Below, one piece after another: positions 2,162-56,793 of a stretch of 64,000 nucleotides of DNA. How positions within the stretch are numbered: position 1 is the stretch's first letter; every line of letters starts with the position of its first letter. Source of the stretch: Raja brachyura (taxonomy: Eukaryota); contig OY740807.1 in NCBI GenBank assembly GCA_963514005.1, positions 18,724,001 to 18,788,000 of the forward strand, given 5' to 3'. The notes below the pieces were generated by a model. The model did no database searches. It had not been told where the DNA came from and saw only the letters and a program-made list of their open reading frames with translations. A program made the position numbers and the translations under genes.

Positions 2162-2678
2162 GGGGCCGCACAGTGGCGCAGCTGGTCGAGCTGCTGCCTC
2201 ATTATGTCAGGGACCCGGGATCGATCTTGATCTCGGGGACTGTCTGTGTGGAGTTTGCACGTTCTCTCTGTGACCATGACATCCCAAAGACATGAGAGTT
2301 TGTCATTTTCTCGGCCTCTATAAATTGCCCCCCAGTACAAGGGTTCCCAACCTGGGGTAAATTACCCCTGGAGGTATATTTTGCCTAACCAGGGGGTAAA
2401 TTTGTTGATTCTGGATTTGTTAAAAACAGTATTTTAAAATGTCCCCTTTGTCAGTTGCTTCATTATGGTAGAAGTGCCAACTCAAATTACTGAACAAAAA
2501 CAGGGTGGGGGTAAATTTACTTTCGAAAAGTTGCCTGGGGTAAACGGGATGAAAAAGGTTGGGAACGCTTGCCCTAGTGTGTAGAGTGCAAAAGTGGGAT
2601 AAGATAGATAAAGTGATATGATGGTCGACGTGGTCTTGGCGGATTGAAGGACTTATTTCCATGCTGTATCTTTCAATC
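2162..2678 (+). mobile_element. HE1/V-SINE-like tRNA-derived SINE, interrupted by a hAT MITE
   Basis: tRNA-like head (gtggcgcagctgg...ggatcgatc), core ctgtctgtgtggagtttgcacgttctc, tail ...gctgtatctttcaat. Confidence 0.8.
2338..2571. mobile_element. hAT (Charlie-like) MITE
   Basis: TIRs caagggttcccaacct / aggttgggaacgcttg; degenerate 8-bp TSD ccccagta / ccctagtg; subterminal ggggtaaa repeats. Confidence 0.8.
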
Positions 2679-2835
2679 CATCGGGTGAATTACATGAATG
2701 TCCCAGTGGCCCCATGTTCATTGTAACAGAAGTCAACTGCTCAAAATCACAATGCCTGCTTGTGGGAACAAATCAATCCCTGTCATTGTCCTTCCCCTTT
2801 GATCCAGCTGACTAACTATGCCTCAGTCACAAAAC

Positions 2836-2889
2836 GGGGTGGGAGATTGCAACCTTCGCGTGGCCCGCCCTGTTTCGACTAATGCAATC
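2836..2889 (+). ncRNA. Minimal HDV/CPEB3-like self-cleaving ribozyme (predicted)
   Basis: P1 GGGGTGG/CCGCCCT, P2 GATTGCA/TGCAATC, P3 ACC/GGC, L3 TTCGCGT, P1.1 partner GT, J4/2 CTAA with putative catalytic C at 2879. Confidence 0.75.
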
Positions 2890-2972
2890 AACTCGACGTG
2901 CACAAACGGAAGATCAAATAGAACAAGTTGTCCAACAACTTTAGGCTGTGCACGCCACACAAAAGAAGAAGT
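2836..2972 (+). mobile_element. Short non-autonomous retroelement with 5' HDV-like ribozyme and (GAA)n tail, copy 1
   Basis: Perfect 11-bp TSD agtcacaaaac at 2825-2835 and 2973-2983; homologous copies at 19754-19861 and 40636-40771. Confidence 0.85.
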
Positions 2973-3705
2973 AGTCACAAAACATCCTCAATGAATTCCC
3001 TTCAGAGAAACAATTTCAATGTGCCCAGAAAATCACTTGCCTAGTTAGTGTCGGGGGCGATTCTTGCAAATCCTGCTTCCACGTTTCATCCTGCATGAGC
3101 CGTGAATTGAAAAAGTCTTTGATGCGCAACACAATAACTGGGTTAGCTCGACCTCTCAGAGGTGACAGCCTGTCCCCTCTCTCAGATCATCTGCATTTTC
3201 CTGCCGTCATAAGCTATGCTTTGAACTTTCAGTGAGGGATATTTATTCCTTCATCTAGAAATGTTATTGATTTAAAAAAAAACCCTGCATCTGCCAACTT
3301 TTCCATTATAAATGTACACATCTACATTTAAGACAGCAGCTGCCCAAGTAAACCAGATTATCAAACACCTCCACATTTTTTTTCAGCACCCTCCCTTCAC
3401 CAGACTGAATACAGAGGTAGACTTCTCCCTGAATCCTGTTCATTCCTTTACCACATAATCTCTGTTCCTCCGTGGCTCACATCTCTTCACTTTCGACCAT
3501 TATCTTGCACATTGGCACCGACTTCTACTTCAGCGCTTTTTTCTTGTTGGAAGCCTTGACTTGAGACGCCTTTTCAACTCAGTTTTTTAACCTGTGGAAT
3601 TCTCCCTGCTTTGCTCCTTGCTTGCTACATAAATGTTTAACACGGCTAAGCAAGGCGCACCATCGACCTGATGTCTTTGTTCCTCTCCTTTTGCAACCTT
3701 CTATT

Positions 3706-6204: not shown

Positions 6205-6556
6205 TGAGGGCACACGCACGTTATATTTGGCTTGGGCAGCTTACAACATTGATTTCTCTAATTTCAAGTAGCCCTTGCATCCCTCCTTCCATCCCTCCAC
6301 CCCCTCGTTAGTTGTCATATTAGTTCCAATGTTCACATTCTTGTATCCCACTTCGCCAGCCACCAATAGTCCATTATGGGCTCCACCCTTCTTTGGTCAT
6401 CTGTTGCCAGCCCTGCTTTGGCCTCGTCTTATCTCCAGTTCCCTCCCCATAACTTTCAGTTTGAAGAAGGGTCCCGACCCGAAACGTCACCCGTCCTCTT
6501 TCTCCAGAGATACTGCCTGACCCGCTGAGTTACTCCAGCATTTTGTGTCTATCTTA
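6205..6556 (+). mobile_element. Penelope-like element 3' fragment with degenerate hammerhead motif
   Basis: GIY-YIG C-terminal remnant (ttgggcagcttacaa..attgatttctctaatttcaagtag), pyrimidine-rich UTR, then ttgaagaagggtcccgacccgaaacgtc. Confidence 0.7.
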
Positions 6557-9968: not shown

Positions 9969-10052
9969 AGGCAGGAGAATGGGGTTTAGGGGAAAAGATG
10001 GATCAGCCATGATTAAATGGGCCGAATGGCCTAATTCGGCTCCTAGAACTTA
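9690..10052 (+). mobile_element. CR1 LINE 3' fragment containing a poly-G run
   Basis: ETYRIVKGLDRV...FL.VG.SRTR.H-like sequence and a gggccgaatggcctaattc tail. Confidence 0.8.
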
Positions 10053-12649: not shown

Positions 12650-12946
12650 GCTTAATGGTGCAGTGGTAGAGTTGCTGCCTTACCGTGCCAGAGATCCAGC
12701 TTCGATCCCGACTATGGGTGCTGTCTGTACGCAGTTTGTACCTTCTCACCATGACCTGTGTGGGATTTCTACGGCAGCTCCGGTTTCCTCCCACACTCCA
12801 AAGACATGCAGGTTTTGTAGGTTAATTGGCTTGGCAAATATGTAAATTATCCATAGTGTGTGTAGGATAGCATTAATGTGCGAGGATCACTGGTCGGTAC
12901 GGACCCGGTGAGCTAAAGGGCCTGTTTTCGCGATGTATCTTTAAAT
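12650..12946 (+). mobile_element. HE1/V-SINE-like SINE
   Basis: ggtgcagtggtagagttgctgccttac head, core, and aagggcctgtttt tail. Confidence 0.85.
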
Positions 12947-12966
12947 TATTATATTATATTATTCTA

Positions 12967-13368: not shown

Positions 13369-13639
13369 GGCAGCACGGTGATGCAACAGCAGATTTGCTG
13401 CCTTACTGCACTAGGAACTTGAGTTTGATCTTGACTACGGGTGCTGTCTGTGTGGAGTTTGTACGCTCTCCCCGTATTTGCGTGGGTTTTACCCGGGTGC
13501 TCTGGTTTCCTCCCACACTCCAAAGACATTCAGGGTTGTAAGTTAATTGGCTTTGGTAAAATGTGTGTGTGCGTGTGCTAGTGTACAGGGTGATCGCTGG
13601 TCGGCGAGGACTGGGTGTGCTGAAGGGCCTGTTTACATG
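13369..13639 (+). mobile_element. HE1/V-SINE-like SINE
   Basis: ggcagcacggtg head, ggagtttgtacgctctcccc core, gaagggcctgtttacatgctgtatatcta tail. Confidence 0.8.
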
Positions 13640-14419
13640 CTGTATATCTAACCTAAACTCATTGCAACGTTTAAGAAACCTTTAGACAGGTATAATGTGT
13701 AGGATAGGTTTGGAGGGATATGGGCCAAATACAGGCAGGTGGAACTAGTGTAGATAGGACATGTTTGTCGGCATGAGCAAGGTGGGCCGAAGGGCCCATT
13801 TCCATGCTGTAAGACTATGACTCAAAACAACCAAGGTGTTCCCTTATGTTCCTCCCCTTCCAGAAAGAATCACCTCCAATGACCTTCAAACCATTTCTCC
13901 TGAGCTCATCCTCCTCTTGTTTTACTGCTGGCACCTCATCAGCAGGCAGATAACTCAGACCATGGGTGTCCTCGCTGACATCAATGAATGCTAGGAGGCC
14001 ATCATGACAGGTAGCAGTATTCAGTTATGTACAAGGTCTGCAGTAGTACATGGATTATCCAGCAATGGCCATTGCAGTAGGTTTTGCATTGACCAGTAGC
14101 CTACATTAAATCACCTTATATGGAGATGGATCAAGTGGAGAGTGAGAGAAGTAGATCGTCTACGACTGAAGAAAATAAAATCCTCAATTAGCAACGTGTT
14201 TGCTGCCCAGTTCTCAAGATAGAGATGCTGCACATTCTGTTCACAAATGGCAAGTTGTATATGAGGTGTCGCAATTTGACACAGACAGTAAACTACTAAG
14301 TGTTCTCTCTTGTGAAACCTTGCTGGCAAAAACAGTCTCCAGGGGTTTATAATCCATCCTATTTCTGATCAAAAATAAACCTGAACAACTGTGGCCCACA
14401 GACACCGGGAACCATTGAG

Positions 14420-18123: not shown

Positions 18124-18253
18124 TGTGTAGGAAGAAACTGCAAACGCTGGTTTAAACCGAAGATAGACACAAAATGCTGGAGTAACTCAGCAGGACAAGC
18201 AACATCTCTGGAGAGAAGGAATGGGTGACGTTTCGGATCCAGACCCTTCTTCA
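18124..18253 (-). mobile_element. Penelope-like terminal fragment
   Basis: tgtgtaggaagaaactgc...gatagacacaaaatgctggagtaactcagc...gggtgacgtttcggatccagacccttcttca. Confidence 0.7.
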
Positions 18254-19753
18254 TATTTCATTGTTTAACCTGACTCGAGCATTACAGAAAATAATGATTC
18301 GGGTTTGTGATTCGGTGGCAAGGAATGCACCGGCCTCAACTCGCTTGAAAACTGAGCATTTCCTGCGTTAGTCTCATGACAACAAGCAGAGGAATGATTG
18401 CCTAGAAACAGCTATTTTCCCAACACTTGTTCACTGAAACAAATGATCTAATAGCATAGCGATGAGAATAACATAACGATCAGAAACCAGGGATGGAGGG
18501 GAAATATGGAGTAAAAACCACCAGGGCAGTTTAAAATACAAGGCCTATTCGCACCATCTCACTCCTGGCAACTCGATGCGGTGCGGACAGAGTGGCCGAC
18601 GGCAACAGAGCCGCCGCAGGTGAGGGTGGGAGGTGTGAGCGGTGCCTGGAGGGGGCGGGGGGGTCGGTGCTGGGACCACCGCCGCGTCCCACCTATCACA
18701 CCATCTGCACGGGAATGTGAATGCGGGTTAGGCAGCATCTATAGAGTGGTGGACAAAAATGCTGGAGAAATGCTTGAGTCTGAAAAAGGGCCAAACTCAG
18801 ACATAGATGCTGCCTCACCCGCTGAGTTTCTCCAGCATGGTTGTCTACATTACCATTTTAAATAGTGTGTGATGGGCTTAAGCCAATTAAATTGCTCGTT
18901 CTTTATGGGGAACCCGACGACAAAAAAAACGATTCTCATTGGTGAGTGTGACTTTATTTATTTATTCATATTTCTTTTTTTGAGCGTGAGAACTTCTGTC
19001 ATCTGCATGAGAGCGTGAGAATTTCCTCAAATGCATTAGTCTCACGCTCAATGCGCGAGATTTGGCAGCCCTGAAAATAACAGGTGGACAATGCAAGGTG
19101 GACATGAATGACGGATAGGTCACTGAGAAGTGCCAAGTGCCAAACACGGCACCTTTGGGGCTTTTACTTAAACTATTACAAATGTTTAACTGGCAGGTAC
19201 ACAAACATCATAAGGTGCAATAAAGTCATTGGATAGCATTCGGGAGCAGGAAGCCGATTAATTTCTCTCCCAGATTTCCCCCAGGCATGAATGGGATTGT
19301 TTAAGTGTTACACACACTGAAGGCATGGAGTTCCCCATTGTCCAGGGAACGCTGCTCATTTACATTCTGCTGCTTGCATCAGCACGTCTGCAAAGGTGCA
19401 GGGACACCCACTTAAGCTCAAGTTCTCTGGGCTCAGTCCCAAGTGCCATAGACACACTGGTCAAACCTGCTTTGGTTTCTGTGGTGGAGCCTTTGTTGCT
19501 CTGCTCACATCAAAACTGGAGCAGGCCCAGAAAGACAAATCCAACATGATGGAGAGAGGTAGCCACCTCCCTGAGTAATGCCTTTGGTTGAAGACCCACT
19601 CCATGGGTTCTGAGCACCTAATCTTAGCCAATTGGCTCTCTTCCAATTTTCATACCAATTCAGGCCTCGGGGAGTACAGGCTGGTCCAATTGTGGTGGCA
19701 AAGTCCTGCGAGTGCTAGAGGCCTCAGGAGCTAGGACTGCGCCAGTAGAATGG

Positions 19754-19861
19754 TCTTCTTCAGCCTAACGTTGTAGGCCGACTTGTTCTATTTGATCTTA
19801 TTTGATTGTGCGCATTCGTCGAAACAGGCCGGACCACGTGAAGGTTGCAATCTTCCACCCC
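19754..19861 (-). mobile_element. HDV-ribozyme-headed short retroelement, copy 2 (internally deleted)
   Basis: Minus strand GGGGTGG AA GATTGCA ACC TTCACGT GGT CCGGCCT GT TTCGA CGAA TGC..., then shared gatcaaatagaacaagt...ttaggctgaagaaga; no TSD seen. Confidence 0.8.
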
Positions 19862-27155: not shown

Positions 27156-27436
27156 CGGCATGGTGGCACAGCGCCAGGAACCCAGGTTCGATCCTGACTA
27201 CGGGTGCTGTCTGTACGGAGTTTGTAGGTTCTCCCCGTGCCCTGCGTGGGTTTTCTCCGAGATCTTCGGTTTCCTCCCGCACTCCAAAGACGTCCAGGTT
27301 TGTAAGTTAATTGGCCTGGGTTTGTATATTTGGTATAAGTGTAAATTGACGCATGTGCTGTTAATGCGCGGGGATCGCTGGTCGGTGCGGACTCGGTGGG
27401 CCTGTTTCCACACTGTACCTCGAAACTAAAGTAAAC
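27156..27436 (+). mobile_element. HE1/V-SINE-like SINE
   Basis: Well-conserved core ggagtttgtaggttctccccgtgccctgcgtgggttttctccgagatcttcggtttcctccc. Confidence 0.85.
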
Positions 27437-39885: not shown

Positions 39886-40635
39886 ATAACATGACATCGC
39901 TATCACTCGTCCTGTGTGGGGAACAGGCAGGAAATGAATGTGCAAACTGCTTGGGCTCTGACTTAGCCAAAATATTTTCAAGTGCAAGAGTTGTCTGTCA
40001 AAGAGGCAACGTTACTGCGAGGGGTTTCTTGCCGGTTTGTCAACAGGACATGAATGGAGTAGTGACAGTAACAGTGAGCTGATAAAGAAACGCCAGGGGA
40101 GAGCATGCACAGGGCAGAGCTTCCTATTTGTACACAGATGCGCCCAATATCAGACGGCAATCACCAATCAGTCCTTCTCTGGGGTGGATGGGGGCGAGGG
40201 GGGGGGGGAAGGGAGCAAGGAGAGGGCGGTGGCAGCGTAAAAACAAGACTTAACAGATGGTGGATCTCGCTCTCAGAAATAACTCGAGTGAAGCCTGCAA
40301 AGGAAGAATGCGAGCAGTGCCAGTGCAGGCAATGATCCGCTATCGCACCTCCCCATCTACAGACTACAGCTGCATCAAGTCATTAACAGAAGTGAAAGAT
40401 AACAATAGCATTTACTGTGCAGAAGTGCCGCCTCTGGGCTCTTGAATTTTACAATGCTAAACAGCTCAACCTCTTGTTTTTGGACATGTGTTTACCCAAG
40501 TTAAAATGATCGCTATCACAGCGCAAGAAGGCAGCGTTGTGACCTCCACCAGGTCTCCCGTTACCAGCGTAACCGGTGAAGGGTCCAGGCCTGAAACATT
40601 GGGCATCCATTTCCTCCACAGATGCTGCCCGATCT

Positions 40636-40771
40636 TCTTCTTCTTTCGTGTGGCTTGCACAGCCTAAAGTTGTTGGACAACTTGTTCTATTTGATCTTCT
40701 GTTTGTGCACGTCGAGTTGATTGCATTGGTGGAAACAGGGCGGACCACGTGAAGGTTGCAATCTTCCACCC
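40636..40771 (-). mobile_element. HDV-ribozyme-headed short retroelement, copy 3, nested in a Penelope-like fragment (~40575-40845)
   Basis: 12-bp TSD gctgcccgatct / gctgcctgatct (11/12); minus strand GGGTGG AA GATTGCA ACC TTCACGT GGT CCGCCCT GT TTCCA CCAA TGCAATC ... gaaagaagaaga. Confidence 0.85.
40719..40771 (-). ncRNA. Minimal HDV/CPEB3-like ribozyme (predicted; first P1 G absent)
   Basis: Perfect P2 and P3, L3 TTCACGT, J4/2 CCAA; same strand as the SERCA pre-mRNA. Confidence 0.7.
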
Positions 40772-41144
40772 GCTGCCTGATCTGCTGAGGTCCTGTAACA
40801 CTGGGTTTTTTTCTCGTGCTTCCAGCATCTGCAGAATCTGGTGTCACGATTACCTGATAGTATTACAGCAAGGCTGGCTGAACAAGTGAGAAACCACATC
40901 TAATTCTATTCTGAGGCCCAGTCTCAGATCGTAGCTGGCATCTAAACCCTCCCCAACCAAAGAGCTGGTGGTCAGCTTTAATTGGGCGTGCACGTTTCAG
41001 ACCTTGCAGTTTTTCAGCCATAAGGTGCTTTTGAAGTGTAGTGTGTGGGCACGCCTGGCAGGATCTCACAAACAGTAATTCGACAGTCGCTGGATCATCT
41101 GTTTCCACAATATTGTGTTGAGGTACACATTAAGCTCGGCATAA

Positions 41145-49861: not shown

Positions 49862-51252
49862 TTTCCTGGTGCGCACATAATTCTGCACTCCACGGCTGCA
49901 TTTGTACAGCAGAGATTCCTTCTCCTTATACTCCCACCACATCCATCTATATGTCCCCCCATTTCCCTTACATCCCACCTCTTTCCCCTCGTCACCCACA
50001 TACCTTCACTCCTCTTCTTTCCTTATTTGACACCAATGCGTCTCCTTTTCAACTCTAGCCTCTAACTAGCTCCACACATCTACCCAAGAGCTCCACCTAA
50101 CCTTTATCCACCTATCACTTGCCAGGCTTTGCCCACCCCCACCACTTTTCCTCCCACATCAAAAGATGTGCTGGTTTGTAGGTTAATTTGCCTCTGGAAA
50201 TTGTCCCCAGTGTGTAGGGAGTGAAGGCAAAAACAAAAGCAATGTGAACGGGTGGTTGTCAGCTGGCCAAAGGGCCGGTCGCCATGCTGTATCTTTCAAT
50301 TAATCAACCCTTTTTATCCCAACGGGTATTAATCTTGATCACAAGCTTTTATGGTACATTTCCCAAGCACTTGCTTCAACTCAAGTCACCACCCATCTTG
50401 TTCAATGGCCCTCTTACTTAAAAAGTAATGCTAGTTGAACAGGATTCGCCTTCGACAAATTCATGTTGACTTTCCTTAATCAACCCACACCTATCCAGTG
50501 CTCAAAGCATTCCCACGCTGACATATGCTTAGAAGATAATGACTCGGGCTGCTGCAATTTCCACTTTGTTCTCTCCACATCCCCCACATGCCAGCTGATT
50601 TGTTAACCATCGGAGATCTATCGAGTGCTCGCTCTTACTTGTGATCCAGCAAGACACGCTAGAAGATCATGCAATGGCCCTTCAAGTCGTAGTGGGAACA
50701 AGCTCTGCAGCAGAGCTTGCAGCCGGTTTGATCGCAGTTCACACCAGAATTGTCATTGAGGGAGGCCAGTGGTTGGAGACGGGAGAAGGGAGAAGTAGGC
50801 ATTTCAAAGAATATTAATCCAACTTAAGAGCGCTTTGGACAAAATACAGTAAACTCTGATCATTGGTGACCACAGATCACTGCCAGAGGAAGCTTTAGAA
50901 GCATGTTGCTGCCAGAGGACAGGTACAAGGATGTCTTTCAAAAGATATGTGGACACATATGGATAGGAAAGGTTTAGAGGGTTGTGGGCCAAATTGCAGG
51001 CAAATGGGACCAGCCCAGAAAGCAGACTTGGTCAGCATGGACAAGGTAGGCCGAAGGGCCTGTTTGTGGTGATGCATAGCTCGGTGAGTGAGTTAATCCT
51101 CAAGATTCAGTATCAGGCTCACCAGGTAAGTAACCTCATACTCATTTAGTTTAGAGATAGTGATCCCCACATTAACTCTAGCAGAGTTGTTACTGCAGCT
51201 CTCATTCCAGCAGAAACCCTGCATGTTGTAGTGTTAACATGACTCAAGTTCC

Positions 51253-51789
51253 CCCTCTGCCCCTCTCCCTCCCTCTCTGCCCCTCTCCCTCCCTCTCTGC
51301 CCCTCTCCCTCCCTCTCTGCCCCTCTCCCTCCCTCTCTGCCCCTCTCCCTCCCTCTCTGCCCCTCTCCCTCCCTCTCTGCCCCTCTCCCTCCCTCTCTGC
51401 CCCTCTCCCTCCCTCTCTGCCCCTCTCCCTCCCTCTCTGCCCCTCTCCCTCCCTCTCTGCCCCTCTCCCTCCCTCTCTGCCCCTCTCCCTCCCTCTCTGC
51501 CCCTCTCCCTCCCTCTCTGCCCCTCTCCCTCCCTCTCTGCCCCTCTCCCTCCCTCTCTGCCCCTCTCCCTCCCTCTCTGCCCCTCTCCCTCCCTCTCTGC
51601 CCCTCTCCCTCCCTCTCTGCCCCTCTCCCTCCCTCTCTGCCCCTCTCCCTCCCTCTCTGCCCCTCTCCCTCCCTCTCTGCCCCTCTCCCTCCCTCTCTGC
51701 CCCTCTCCCTCCCTCTCTGCCCCTCTCCCTCCCTCTCTGCCCCTCTCCCTCCCTCTCTGCCCCTCTCCCTCCCTCTCTGCCCCTCTCTC
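51253..51789. repeat. Perfect 20-bp minisatellite (ccctctccctccctctctgc) x ~26.5
   Basis: 26 identical units at 51261-51780 plus partial flanking units. Confidence 0.97.
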
Positions 51790-55118: not shown

Positions 55119-55458
55119 CATTTTTTTTTAGTCTATCAATTTAAGGAAATAGTTCAAACAGTTTATAAAGTCTAAATTCAAGAAACGCCCTCAGCCTCAC
55201 ACTGCCCTTATCAAAATCATTCTAAATGTGTGCCAAATCGAGTGAGCGTTTTCCCATCCATGCACCAAAGCCCACTAAAGCCGGCTGATCTCCTCACCCT
55301 CATAACCCCATTCTCCTGCCTTCTCCCACAACCCGTGACACCCGTACTAATCGCTGGCGCTGTTGGGCGGCAACTCTACTGTTATTCCCACTGTGAATTT
55401 TTGTATCCCAGCCCAGTTTTAAACCTTTTACATAGAAAATGGAAAGTAGAACAATACA

Positions 55459-56232
55459 GGAGGGCACCAGTAAATGGGGAATTAGGAGAGGGCACCAGTA
55501 AATGGGGAAATTAGGGGAGGGCACCAGTAAATGGGGAATTAGGGGAGGGCACCAGTAAATGGGGAAATTAGGGGAGGGCACCAGTAAATGGGGAATTAGG
55601 GGAGGGCACCAGTAAATGGGGAATTAGGAGAGGGCACCAGTAAATGGGGAATTAGGGGAGGGCACCAGTAAATGGGGAATTAAGGGAGGGCACCAGTAAA
55701 TGGGAAAATTAGGGGAGGGCACCAGTAAATGGAAAAATTAGGGGAGGGCACCAGTAAATGGGGAATTAGGGGAGGGCACCAGTAAATGGGGAATTAGGGG
55801 AGGGCACCAGTAAATGGGGAATTAGGGGAGGGCACCAGTAAATGGGGAATTAGGGGAGGGCACCAATAAATGGGGAATTAGGGGAGGGCACCAATAAATG
55901 GGGAATTAGGGGAGGGCACCAATAAATGGGGAATTAGGGGAGGGCACCAATAAATGGGAAATTAGGGCAGGGCACCAGTAAATGGGGAATTAGGGGAGGG
56001 CACGAGTAAAAGGGGAATTAGGGGAGGGCACCAGTAAATGGGGAATTAGGAGAGGGCACCAATAGATGGGAAATTAGGGCAGGGCACCAGTAAATGGGGA
56101 ATTAGGGGAGGGCACCAGTAAAAGGGGAATTAGGGGAGGGCACTAATAAATGCGGAATTAGGGGAGGGCACCAATAAATGGGGAATTAGGGGAGGGCACC
56201 AGTAAAAGGGGAATTAGGGGAGGGCACCAATA
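55459..56232. repeat. 28-bp G-rich minisatellite (ggggagggcaccagtaaatggggaatta) x ~27
   Basis: Tandem units with scattered point variants (cagt/caat, ggga/gaaa, occasional 1-bp indels). Confidence 0.95.
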
Positions 56233-56793
56233 ATGCTGGGATCTGCAGCAGGACGACATGCACCATTCTCTGTAATGAACACACAACTGACCATATGGGA
56301 AGATTGTTACCTCCGAGCAACAGCCAACCCTTACATCAAGGTTTCTCACAGCAAAACATTTTCAAACACAGGACACTAGGACAATCGTTTTACACCATTC
56401 TTGTCAAACAGAGATGACAAGATCTCATGCTTTTGGACGTGGGGAGCAGCGAGTCGATGGTGGTTAAAAACACACCAGGGATGCAAGAGGATCACGAGCC
56501 AGTCAGTAGACCAGGTTAGGAGGGAGGCAGTTCCTTGCCCAAAGAGTGATGGCCACTGGAACCAGTTGTTGGGGAGTGTGGACAGTGCCTACTCTGTCCT
56601 GGGGGGGTTCCATGGTAGGAGACACAGGGACAACAAACCAAAACAATATAGATTCCCTGGACTGGCTTCCATCTTCTACACCCATCCTGAGAAACTGACT
56701 CGACTGATTTCTGTCTTGTTCTCCAGTTGTCAGTTTGGGCCACCTCCCAGGGGGTGAAGCTGCTACTTGCCACCTAGTCGGGAGGGACATCTT

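Follow-up and report, generated by a model that had tools for sequence, protein, structure and literature searches.

A 137-base insertion at 2836-2972 of the 64,000-nucleotide stretch of Raja brachyura DNA analysed here (the window) raises the question of what fixes the 5' end of so short a retroposed element. The preliminary description of this locus saw in it a SINE-like element with a self-cleaving ribozyme placed in front of a LINE tail. In the present study, we arrive at a related but different reading, to which we assign a probability of roughly 0.7, namely that this non-autonomous element was built from both ends of a LINE with one ORF, probably of the Vingi clade, and that self-cleavage of a predicted HDV-like ribozyme inherited from that LINE likely fixes its 5' end.

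The insertion and its empty site

The insert lies between two copies of an 11-bp duplication, AGTCACAAAAC, at 2825-2835 and 2973-2983, and its first base is G2836; all of this, given in the preliminary description, can be read directly in the sequence. Contigs of four other DNA runs were aligned to 2650-3180, and those of three runs jump from 2824 to 2973, skipping 148 bases (the 137 plus one 11-bp copy) with 11 ambiguous letters at the joint, while the fourth run yielded one contig with both flanks and no insert. These empty sites, with a single copy of the target sequence, establish 2836-2972 as a real insertion with a true duplication, and, since the flanks in three of the four runs differ by ~5-10% from the window, they come from other organisms or lineages.

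Read on the + strand, the insert begins with a predicted minimal HDV-like ribozyme of 54 nt, which is also the 5' end of the partner LINE (2836-2889), and continues with the remaining LINE-derived 5' UTR (2890-2907), of which 2897-2904 is predicted to pair with 2947-2954. A junction segment that differs among subfamilies and among separately formed derivatives (2908-2934) leads to the LINE 3' end (2935-2962), including the stop codon of the LINE ORF at 2942-2944, and to a tail of (AAG)3 and one T (2963-2972). Two further copies stand on the - strand of the window, with starts as previously described. One, at 40637-40771, is 94% identical, lacks G1 and begins one G in, at 40771, next to a 12-bp duplication (40772-40783 and about 40624-40635) that carries one mismatch. 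The other, at 19761-19861, belongs to an older subfamily with an internal deletion and starts at G1 with GGGGTGG at 19861, although its tail is shortened and no duplication was seen around it. The window also holds two other abundant short repeats (for example at 12682-12951, 13371-13658 and 27168-27432; 6459-6555 and 18126-18258), one with a tRNA-like head and one with palindromic arms; insertions of the latter interrupt several copies of the present element. Both are presumably known cartilaginous-fish repeats. Tandem arrays of 20-nt and 28-nt units lie at 51130-51700 and 55426-56345.

The family is large. In the 2.7-Gb genome, a tail 18-mer has 5,135 + 5,132 = 10,267 exact matches and a head 28-mer 3,710 + 3,683, with 0 matches for the reversed controls of both. 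A rough total of 23,500-28,700 copies follows from the extent to which the head and tail match lists overlap along the first 24.8 Mb of one contig. The element was found in runs of eight organisms, the copies of its youngest subfamily differ pairwise by ~5.6% (22 copies), and the head core had 0 matches in a metagenome scan. Several individual loci deserve mention. A tandem segmental array at about 14.57-14.95 Mb of G000:C1 (L171, L173-L184) carries 13 copies of one insertion, and at L293:250-385 a young short element with its own duplication interrupts the endonuclease region in an older copy of the partner LINE. In the second hit in L051 (about 2011-2066, +), a long (AAG)n run stands immediately behind head nt 1-56; this is possibly a ribozyme-only insertion, or else a deletion. 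In runs X16, X17 and X18, a contig joint leads back by 68 bases at window 2834-2901, with high contig depth in two of the runs; the resulting doubled head resembles the two-signature SIDER2 layout and may be one copy inserted within another.

Where the copies begin

Because searches with the whole element favour full-length matches, the copies for the 5'-end analysis were picked by the tail alone. From the first 100 matches listed, 90 were taken, and removal of 16 duplicates sharing both flanks left 74 insertions, comprising 3 LINE 3' ends and 71 short copies. The head is kept in 66 of these 71, the other five being truncated and headless, though few truncations are expected under any model, since an RNA of 137 nt is easily copied in full. 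Among the 60 copies with a contiguous head, the alignment starts at nt 1 in 53, at nt 2 in two, at nt 3 in four and at nt 5 in one; the remaining headed copies, sorted by eye, have the head beyond a later nested insertion (5) or GGGG followed by a small deletion (1).

A pooled set of 198 copies of mixed ascertainment, with one duplicate pair included, points the same way. Target duplications were found in 146 of the 198, against 2 of 393 in a mismatched-pairing control, and all but four of them are 9-16 nt long. Their ends fall at G1 in 65 cases, 1-4 nt inside in 41 (mostly where the target happens to continue with G, and in about six through a missing G1), 1-3 nt before it in 37 and 6 nt off in three; 113 of the 146 end at most 1 nt from G1. 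Pairwise identity is 26% over the 20 nt upstream of G1 and 89% over the first 20 nt inside. Only 6 of 19,503 pairs share 14 or more of the 20 upstream bases; three of these share the downstream flank as well and the other three stop at 14, and a 5' transduction is therefore not apparent in any of them. Contigs of the four other runs (264, 142, 231 and 135 in number) diverge at 2836 and continue with unrelated sequence, their upstream agreement being 0.34-0.36. The alignment of 5' junctions that the preliminary description proposed as a check thus gives a pile-up at G1, with no homology running upstream, in the tail-picked copies, in the pooled copies and in the four other runs. LINE heads are less sharp (n = 24), with starts at nt 1-2 in eight, nt 3-5 in five, nt 8-16 in seven and nt 39-64 in four. 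In the putative RNA runs, 17, 29, 17 and 1 contigs extend upstream of G1, but three of these runs are RNA by guess and one of the three is probably DNA, and the contigs do not count as evidence of read-through.

The joints themselves are informative. T precedes G1 in 94 of the 198 copies (p 7e-12 against 25%), and where the junction carries extra bases (38 cases), the last of these is T in 23 and G in four. The T-rich extra bases fit an untemplated A on the cDNA that is used in joining. Joining through untemplated bases has been proposed for R2 in general terms, and variable non-templated bases occur at R2 5' junctions (PMC3774820); for L1, an untemplated G is taken as the mark of a capped template (PMC6425141). 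The present junctions show no cap-derived G, in a comparison that presumes a partner RT able to copy the cap, and some of the extra bases may be mutated duplication ends.

The marks of target-primed insertion were all recovered, namely a duplication of variable length (146/198), a simple-repeat tail and an empty site. The remark in the preliminary description that neither a tRNA head nor a clear A or B box is visible also stands, as ARAGORN finds no tRNA at 2700-3100 and the best box matches are no better than those in shuffled sequences (465 and 818 of 1000 shuffles as good).

Origin of the two ends

Three of the tail-picked loci continue upstream into the end of an ORF with a Cys/His motif, and the stop codon of this ORF lies inside the common tail. 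Walking upstream from the tail led to an element of ~3.1 kb with the same head, a short 5' UTR, an endonuclease, a reverse transcriptase (RT) and a weak zf-RVT match, and a ~3.1-kb copy bears both head and tail. The short element corresponds to nt 1-72 of this LINE (72-77 nt of head being kept) plus its last ~37 nt: LINE copies begin with the same GGGGTGG head, and nt 100-136 of the short element, which has no ORF, match the LINE tail with its stop codon. The supposition that the 5' strand of P1 is missing from every LINE copy was dropped once more copies had been examined. An RTE LINE was likewise rejected as the partner, since the RTE-like family with PF20049, though also tailed by (AAG)n, has another 3' end at 30 of 30 loci. 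That family (L211-L240) carries its (AAG)n tail directly after the ORF.

What can be said of the partner is read from broken copies. The 60-odd copies seen are all broken, with a longest open stretch of 350 aa, and they show the endonuclease and RT domains of a single ORF in order; the usual truncation ladder is present (first-look candidates fall from 655 for the 3' end to 51 for the RT start and 44 for the 5' end). Among longer proteins there are 618 homologs, typically of ~1000 aa, and the closest intact one, the best of the 618, has 1019 aa and is 68% identical to the partner. RNase H gave no match in protein P0001 or in the C-terminal pieces of the partner, PF00075 is absent from all 120 homologs listed of the 618, and a PDB search returned distant RTs only. 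A single ORF without RNase H is among the stated features of Vingi, and the absence of RNase H separates Vingi from Ingi, according to PMC13708176. In an RT tree with long branches and no named Vingi or Ingi reference, the partner groups with 18 unnamed or uninformatively named homologs and two sister LINEs (96/96), apart from the rows that we take to be RTE-, CR1- and Rex1-like. The assignment to the Vingi clade is probable and not proven, because that tree contains no named Vingi reference.

Deletion derivatives of the partner arose repeatedly, as shown by at least six junction types among 30 loci picked by the 18-mer adjoining the junction, and minor derivatives with T4-T5 runs have also transposed, with tail and duplication. 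The bipartite build with a LINE tail, put forward in the preliminary description, therefore holds, at 137 nt, whereas its separate ribozyme does not: the head is the partner LINE's own 5' end, which makes the element an internal-deletion derivative of a known class and not a SINE. The SINE-like label falls with it, as the element, devoid of a tRNA head, derives from LINE ends instead. That we are dealing with an internal-deletion derivative of a probable Vingi LINE, headed by a predicted ribozyme, is well supported.

The predicted fold and its relatives

Nucleotides 1-54 parse as a minimal HDV-like ribozyme with a 7-bp P1 that includes a G1-U wobble (2836-2842/2865-2871), a 2-nt J1/2 (2843-2844), a 7-bp P2 (2845-2851/2883-2889) and a 3-bp P3 (2852-2854/2862-2864) closed by the L3 loop (2855-2861; UUCACGU in the element at large). 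After P1 follow G-U, with the P1.1 G at 2872, five bases in the place of P4 (2874-2878), and C-N-A-A, whose C (2879), the first position of J4/2, is the predicted catalytic base. G2836, the first base of the insert, is also the first base of P1, so that the insert starts at the predicted cleavage site, as previously proposed. A strict fold descriptor is passed by 117 of the 198 pooled copies, 116 of them with P1 at the element's first base, and failed by 81; none of 200 shuffled heads passes. Of 176 copies, 171 retain the predicted catalytic C, and the base next to it differs between subfamilies. In 149 of the 176, P1 has a U-G wobble where the LINE has U-A.

The nested double pseudoknot of P1, P1.1, P2 and P3 with the G1 wobble is supported by the descriptor and by covariation across five families, all of them from one genome. 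At the gathering score Rfam reports nothing in the window, and a typical copy reaches an HDV family at E 4.1, over exactly the 54-nt span of the fold; the HDV-like models of Rfam include P4 and do not model both pseudoknots. The nested folding energy, a calculation that leaves pseudoknots outside, is no better than that of shuffles (z -0.7). All three window copies carry a fold defect, and the strict descriptor finds none of them in a scan of the window. The copy at 2836-2972 has G2858 instead of A in L3, and C2864 where 151 of 176 copies have T, which breaks one of the three P3 pairs; given this broken pair, it is probably a poor cutter. The C2864 change occurs in 24 of the 176 pooled copies, a pool that was seeded with the window copy itself.

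We also searched the genome with the Rfam model of the CPEB3 ribozyme, RF00622, and obtained 41 matches among 59 scored candidates, 32 of them above the cut-off and the best at 65.8 bits; none of 14 control genomes has a match. Thirty fetched loci form four families of the same topology with a nearly constant L3, scoring 36-66 bits (cut-off 35), whereas the heads of the partner LINE and of the short element give no match to RF00622 at E 0.01. Compared with the short element, the four sister families preserve both L3 and the C-N-A-A junction, and the changes in P1, P2 and P3 are compensating ones. One sister family directly heads a related ORF (E 2e-45), another adjoins a related ORF on the opposite strand (E 7e-64), and a further one has no ORF in the fetched flanks. 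These three families (L375-L395 and L397; about 1510-1580, match strand) have full CPEB3-type heads at 37-66 bits, one of them near the CPEB3 consensus in P2 and P4.

The fourth sister family is a second short one (L396, L398-L404; about 1510-1680, match strand), which measures about 140-170 nt and has an (AAG)n tail and its own P4-less HDV-like head. It starts at its own G1 in seven of eight copies, P1 has 6 bp in five of the eight, and duplications were seen by eye in all six copies with the tail in view. It has likewise lost P4 and yet kept the predicted catalytic C. Two families with different heads that both end at the structural G1 are the best indirect sign, from sequence, that the fold may set the boundary.

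Predicted pairing between head and tail

In the short element, pairing is predicted between the 8-12 bases right behind the fold and bases right in front of the tail. It is also predicted in two LINE copies, whose arms are separated by 3 kb, and in the second short family, where the paired letters are others; in each of nine tests, with hand-chosen windows, 0-4 of 500 shuffles were as stable. Furthermore, 30 LINE loci were selected through their 5' UTR, and in 12 of them the head is inverted against the body, often skipping more than 2 kb (L346, L347, L349, L350, L352, L355, L356, L358, L361, L362, L370 and L373; about 1410-1470), and in six of the 12 a duplication seen by eye surrounds the whole inverted unit. 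Further inverted heads occur in L281, L283, L306 and L308. The inverted heads reach up to nt 76-489 against a truncated body, several of them inside one target duplication; the idea that they always end at nt ~80 was given up, since four of 16 do so and the others end at nt 196-489. Such copies resemble what we take to be twin priming, with the difference that priming lies near the RNA 5' end and far from where the first cDNA stopped. Together, duplex and inverted heads suggest that the RNA 5' end may sit at the insertion site.

Discussion

The order of events that we propose is as follows. A copy of the element would be transcribed from upstream or from its own head, and the 54-nt fold would cut before G1, dropping the upstream sequence and leaving an uncapped end, as fold and junctions together suggest. 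The LINE protein would then bind the common tail, nick the target and prime on (AAG)n; the sharing of the tail and the duplications are observed, and the binding is what we infer from them. Reverse transcription would proceed to G1, often with an untemplated base added, and the end would be joined by chance microhomology, a pattern seen at the junctions for which this chemistry is the presumed cause. The short head-tail duplex probably keeps both ends together, and the repeated origin of deletion derivatives may be explained by just this holding of the two ends.

A fixed 5' end could also be made in other ways. An internal promoter for RNA polymerase II with its start at +1, comparable to Pr77 of L1Tc, would produce a similar pile-up without 5' transductions, and cleavage would then be secondary or a clean-up of read-through. 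L1Tc and NARTc provide a precedent, as their first 77 nt are both promoter and ribozyme, cleaving just before +1 (PMC3383444), and a similar length of LINE head, 72-77 nt, is kept here. We nevertheless regard this as unlikely: G is rare among the extra junction bases (4/38), in a second family, whose head sequence is another one, the boundary again goes with the structural G1, the features of the catalytic core are kept in five families, and promoter and ribozyme can coexist. A Pol III origin, that is, a true SINE whose start falls at G1 by chance, would suit a short and very abundant element whose dominant family, unlike the LINE 5' UTR, has no internal T4 run. Against it stand the absent tRNA head, the chance-level A- and B-box matches, the identity of the head with the LINE 5' UTR and the transposition, with tail and duplication, of the minor derivatives with T4-T5 runs, and we hold it to be very improbable.

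More subtly, the fold might be dead or weak in the short element and kept as a protein-binding, exonuclease-blocking 5' module, G1 then marking a stop of decay or of reverse transcription. The missing P4 and the P1 wobble in 149 of 176 short copies in place of the U-A of the LINE would agree with this, the inverted LINE copies and the head-tail duplex suggest a binding role for the head, and well-folded SIDER heads of trypanosomes can be inactive (PMC4035085). However, ribozymes without P4 are active in phages (PMC10879173). The predicted catalytic C persists in 171 of the 176 copies, next to a base that differs among subfamilies, and the second family, which lost P4 in the same way, has kept this C too. 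Accordingly, we give this account little chance. Self-cleavage of the inherited head remains the reading that we prefer, with precedents in the cleavage of L1Tc and NARTc just before +1 (PMC3383444) and in the ribozymes of R2 SIDEs, which are likewise non-autonomous and cleave in vitro (PMC3414825).

A wider view would join all of these observations, though we put it slightly short of an even chance. Vingi-type LINEs might be headed clade-wide by active CPEB3-type ribozymes, the mammalian CPEB3 ribozyme being the domesticated head of such an element. The 54-nt P4-less version found here might cut; self-cleaving sites would then lie scattered in this genome by the tens of thousands, and we would know of no smaller retroposon defined by a ribozyme, and the head-to-tail duplex might hold the cleaved 5' end at the insertion site and so give rise to repeated deletion derivatives and to inverted heads.

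If the fold cuts, ribozyme-defined 5' ends would extend to the Vingi clade, and 137 nt would represent a natural minimal template, in a clade that is under development for RNA-based gene insertion (PMC13708176). Ribozymes of the HDV type without P4, so far mostly from phages, would be present at 10,000 or more places of an animal genome, and sense-strand copies in introns could cut host pre-mRNA. Additionally, through the sister families the question of where the CPEB3 ribozyme came from becomes testable, and the human genome contains a Vingi remnant, X12_LINE (PMC5753468). In a literature search that covered few subscription papers and no Repbase, Dfam, patents or supplements, we found no ribozyme placed on Vingi, no description of the short skate family, no derivation of the CPEB3 ribozyme from a retrotransposon head and no minimal build in an animal genome.

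The class as such is already known from NARTc/RIME and the R2 SIDEs, and this known architecture limits the surprise. NARTc and RIME of trypanosomes, derived from L1Tc and ingi, likewise join ~77 nt from the start of an Ingi-related LINE to a short piece of its 3' end and carry an HDV-like head fold whose cut site is the +1 of the element (PMC3383444, PMC4035085). The skate element is shorter than NARTc (137 vs 263 nt), lacks P4, ends in (AAG)n and occupies an animal genome with at least 10,000 copies; its partner has no RNase H match, and its ribozyme is a predicted one. The Vingi-1_EE derivatives of the hedgehog are also many internal-deletion derivatives of one compact LINE without RNase H, and four clades, RTE, Ingi, Vingi and R2, are said to make bipartite non-autonomous LINEs (Kojima 2018, PMC5786205).

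The mammalian CPEB3 ribozyme (RF00622) has the same topology, a 2-nt J1/2 and the same letters in L3 and P1.1; it is a single intronic copy, whereas the skate head lacks P4 and has no RF00622 match. The R2 SIDEs of Drosophila also join a ribozyme to a LINE 3' end, are copied in trans and have their 5' end freed from a co-transcript, but they measure ~530 nt and occur only in 28S genes and in small numbers (PMC3414825), whereas the skate element is dispersed and presumably uses an APE-type LINE. The minimal HDV-like and theta ribozymes, finally, share the lack of a P4 domain and the catalytic C as the first base of J4/2; nearly 99% of these P4-less ribozymes come from tailed phages (PMC10879173), whereas the skate fold stands at the head of an animal retrotransposon.
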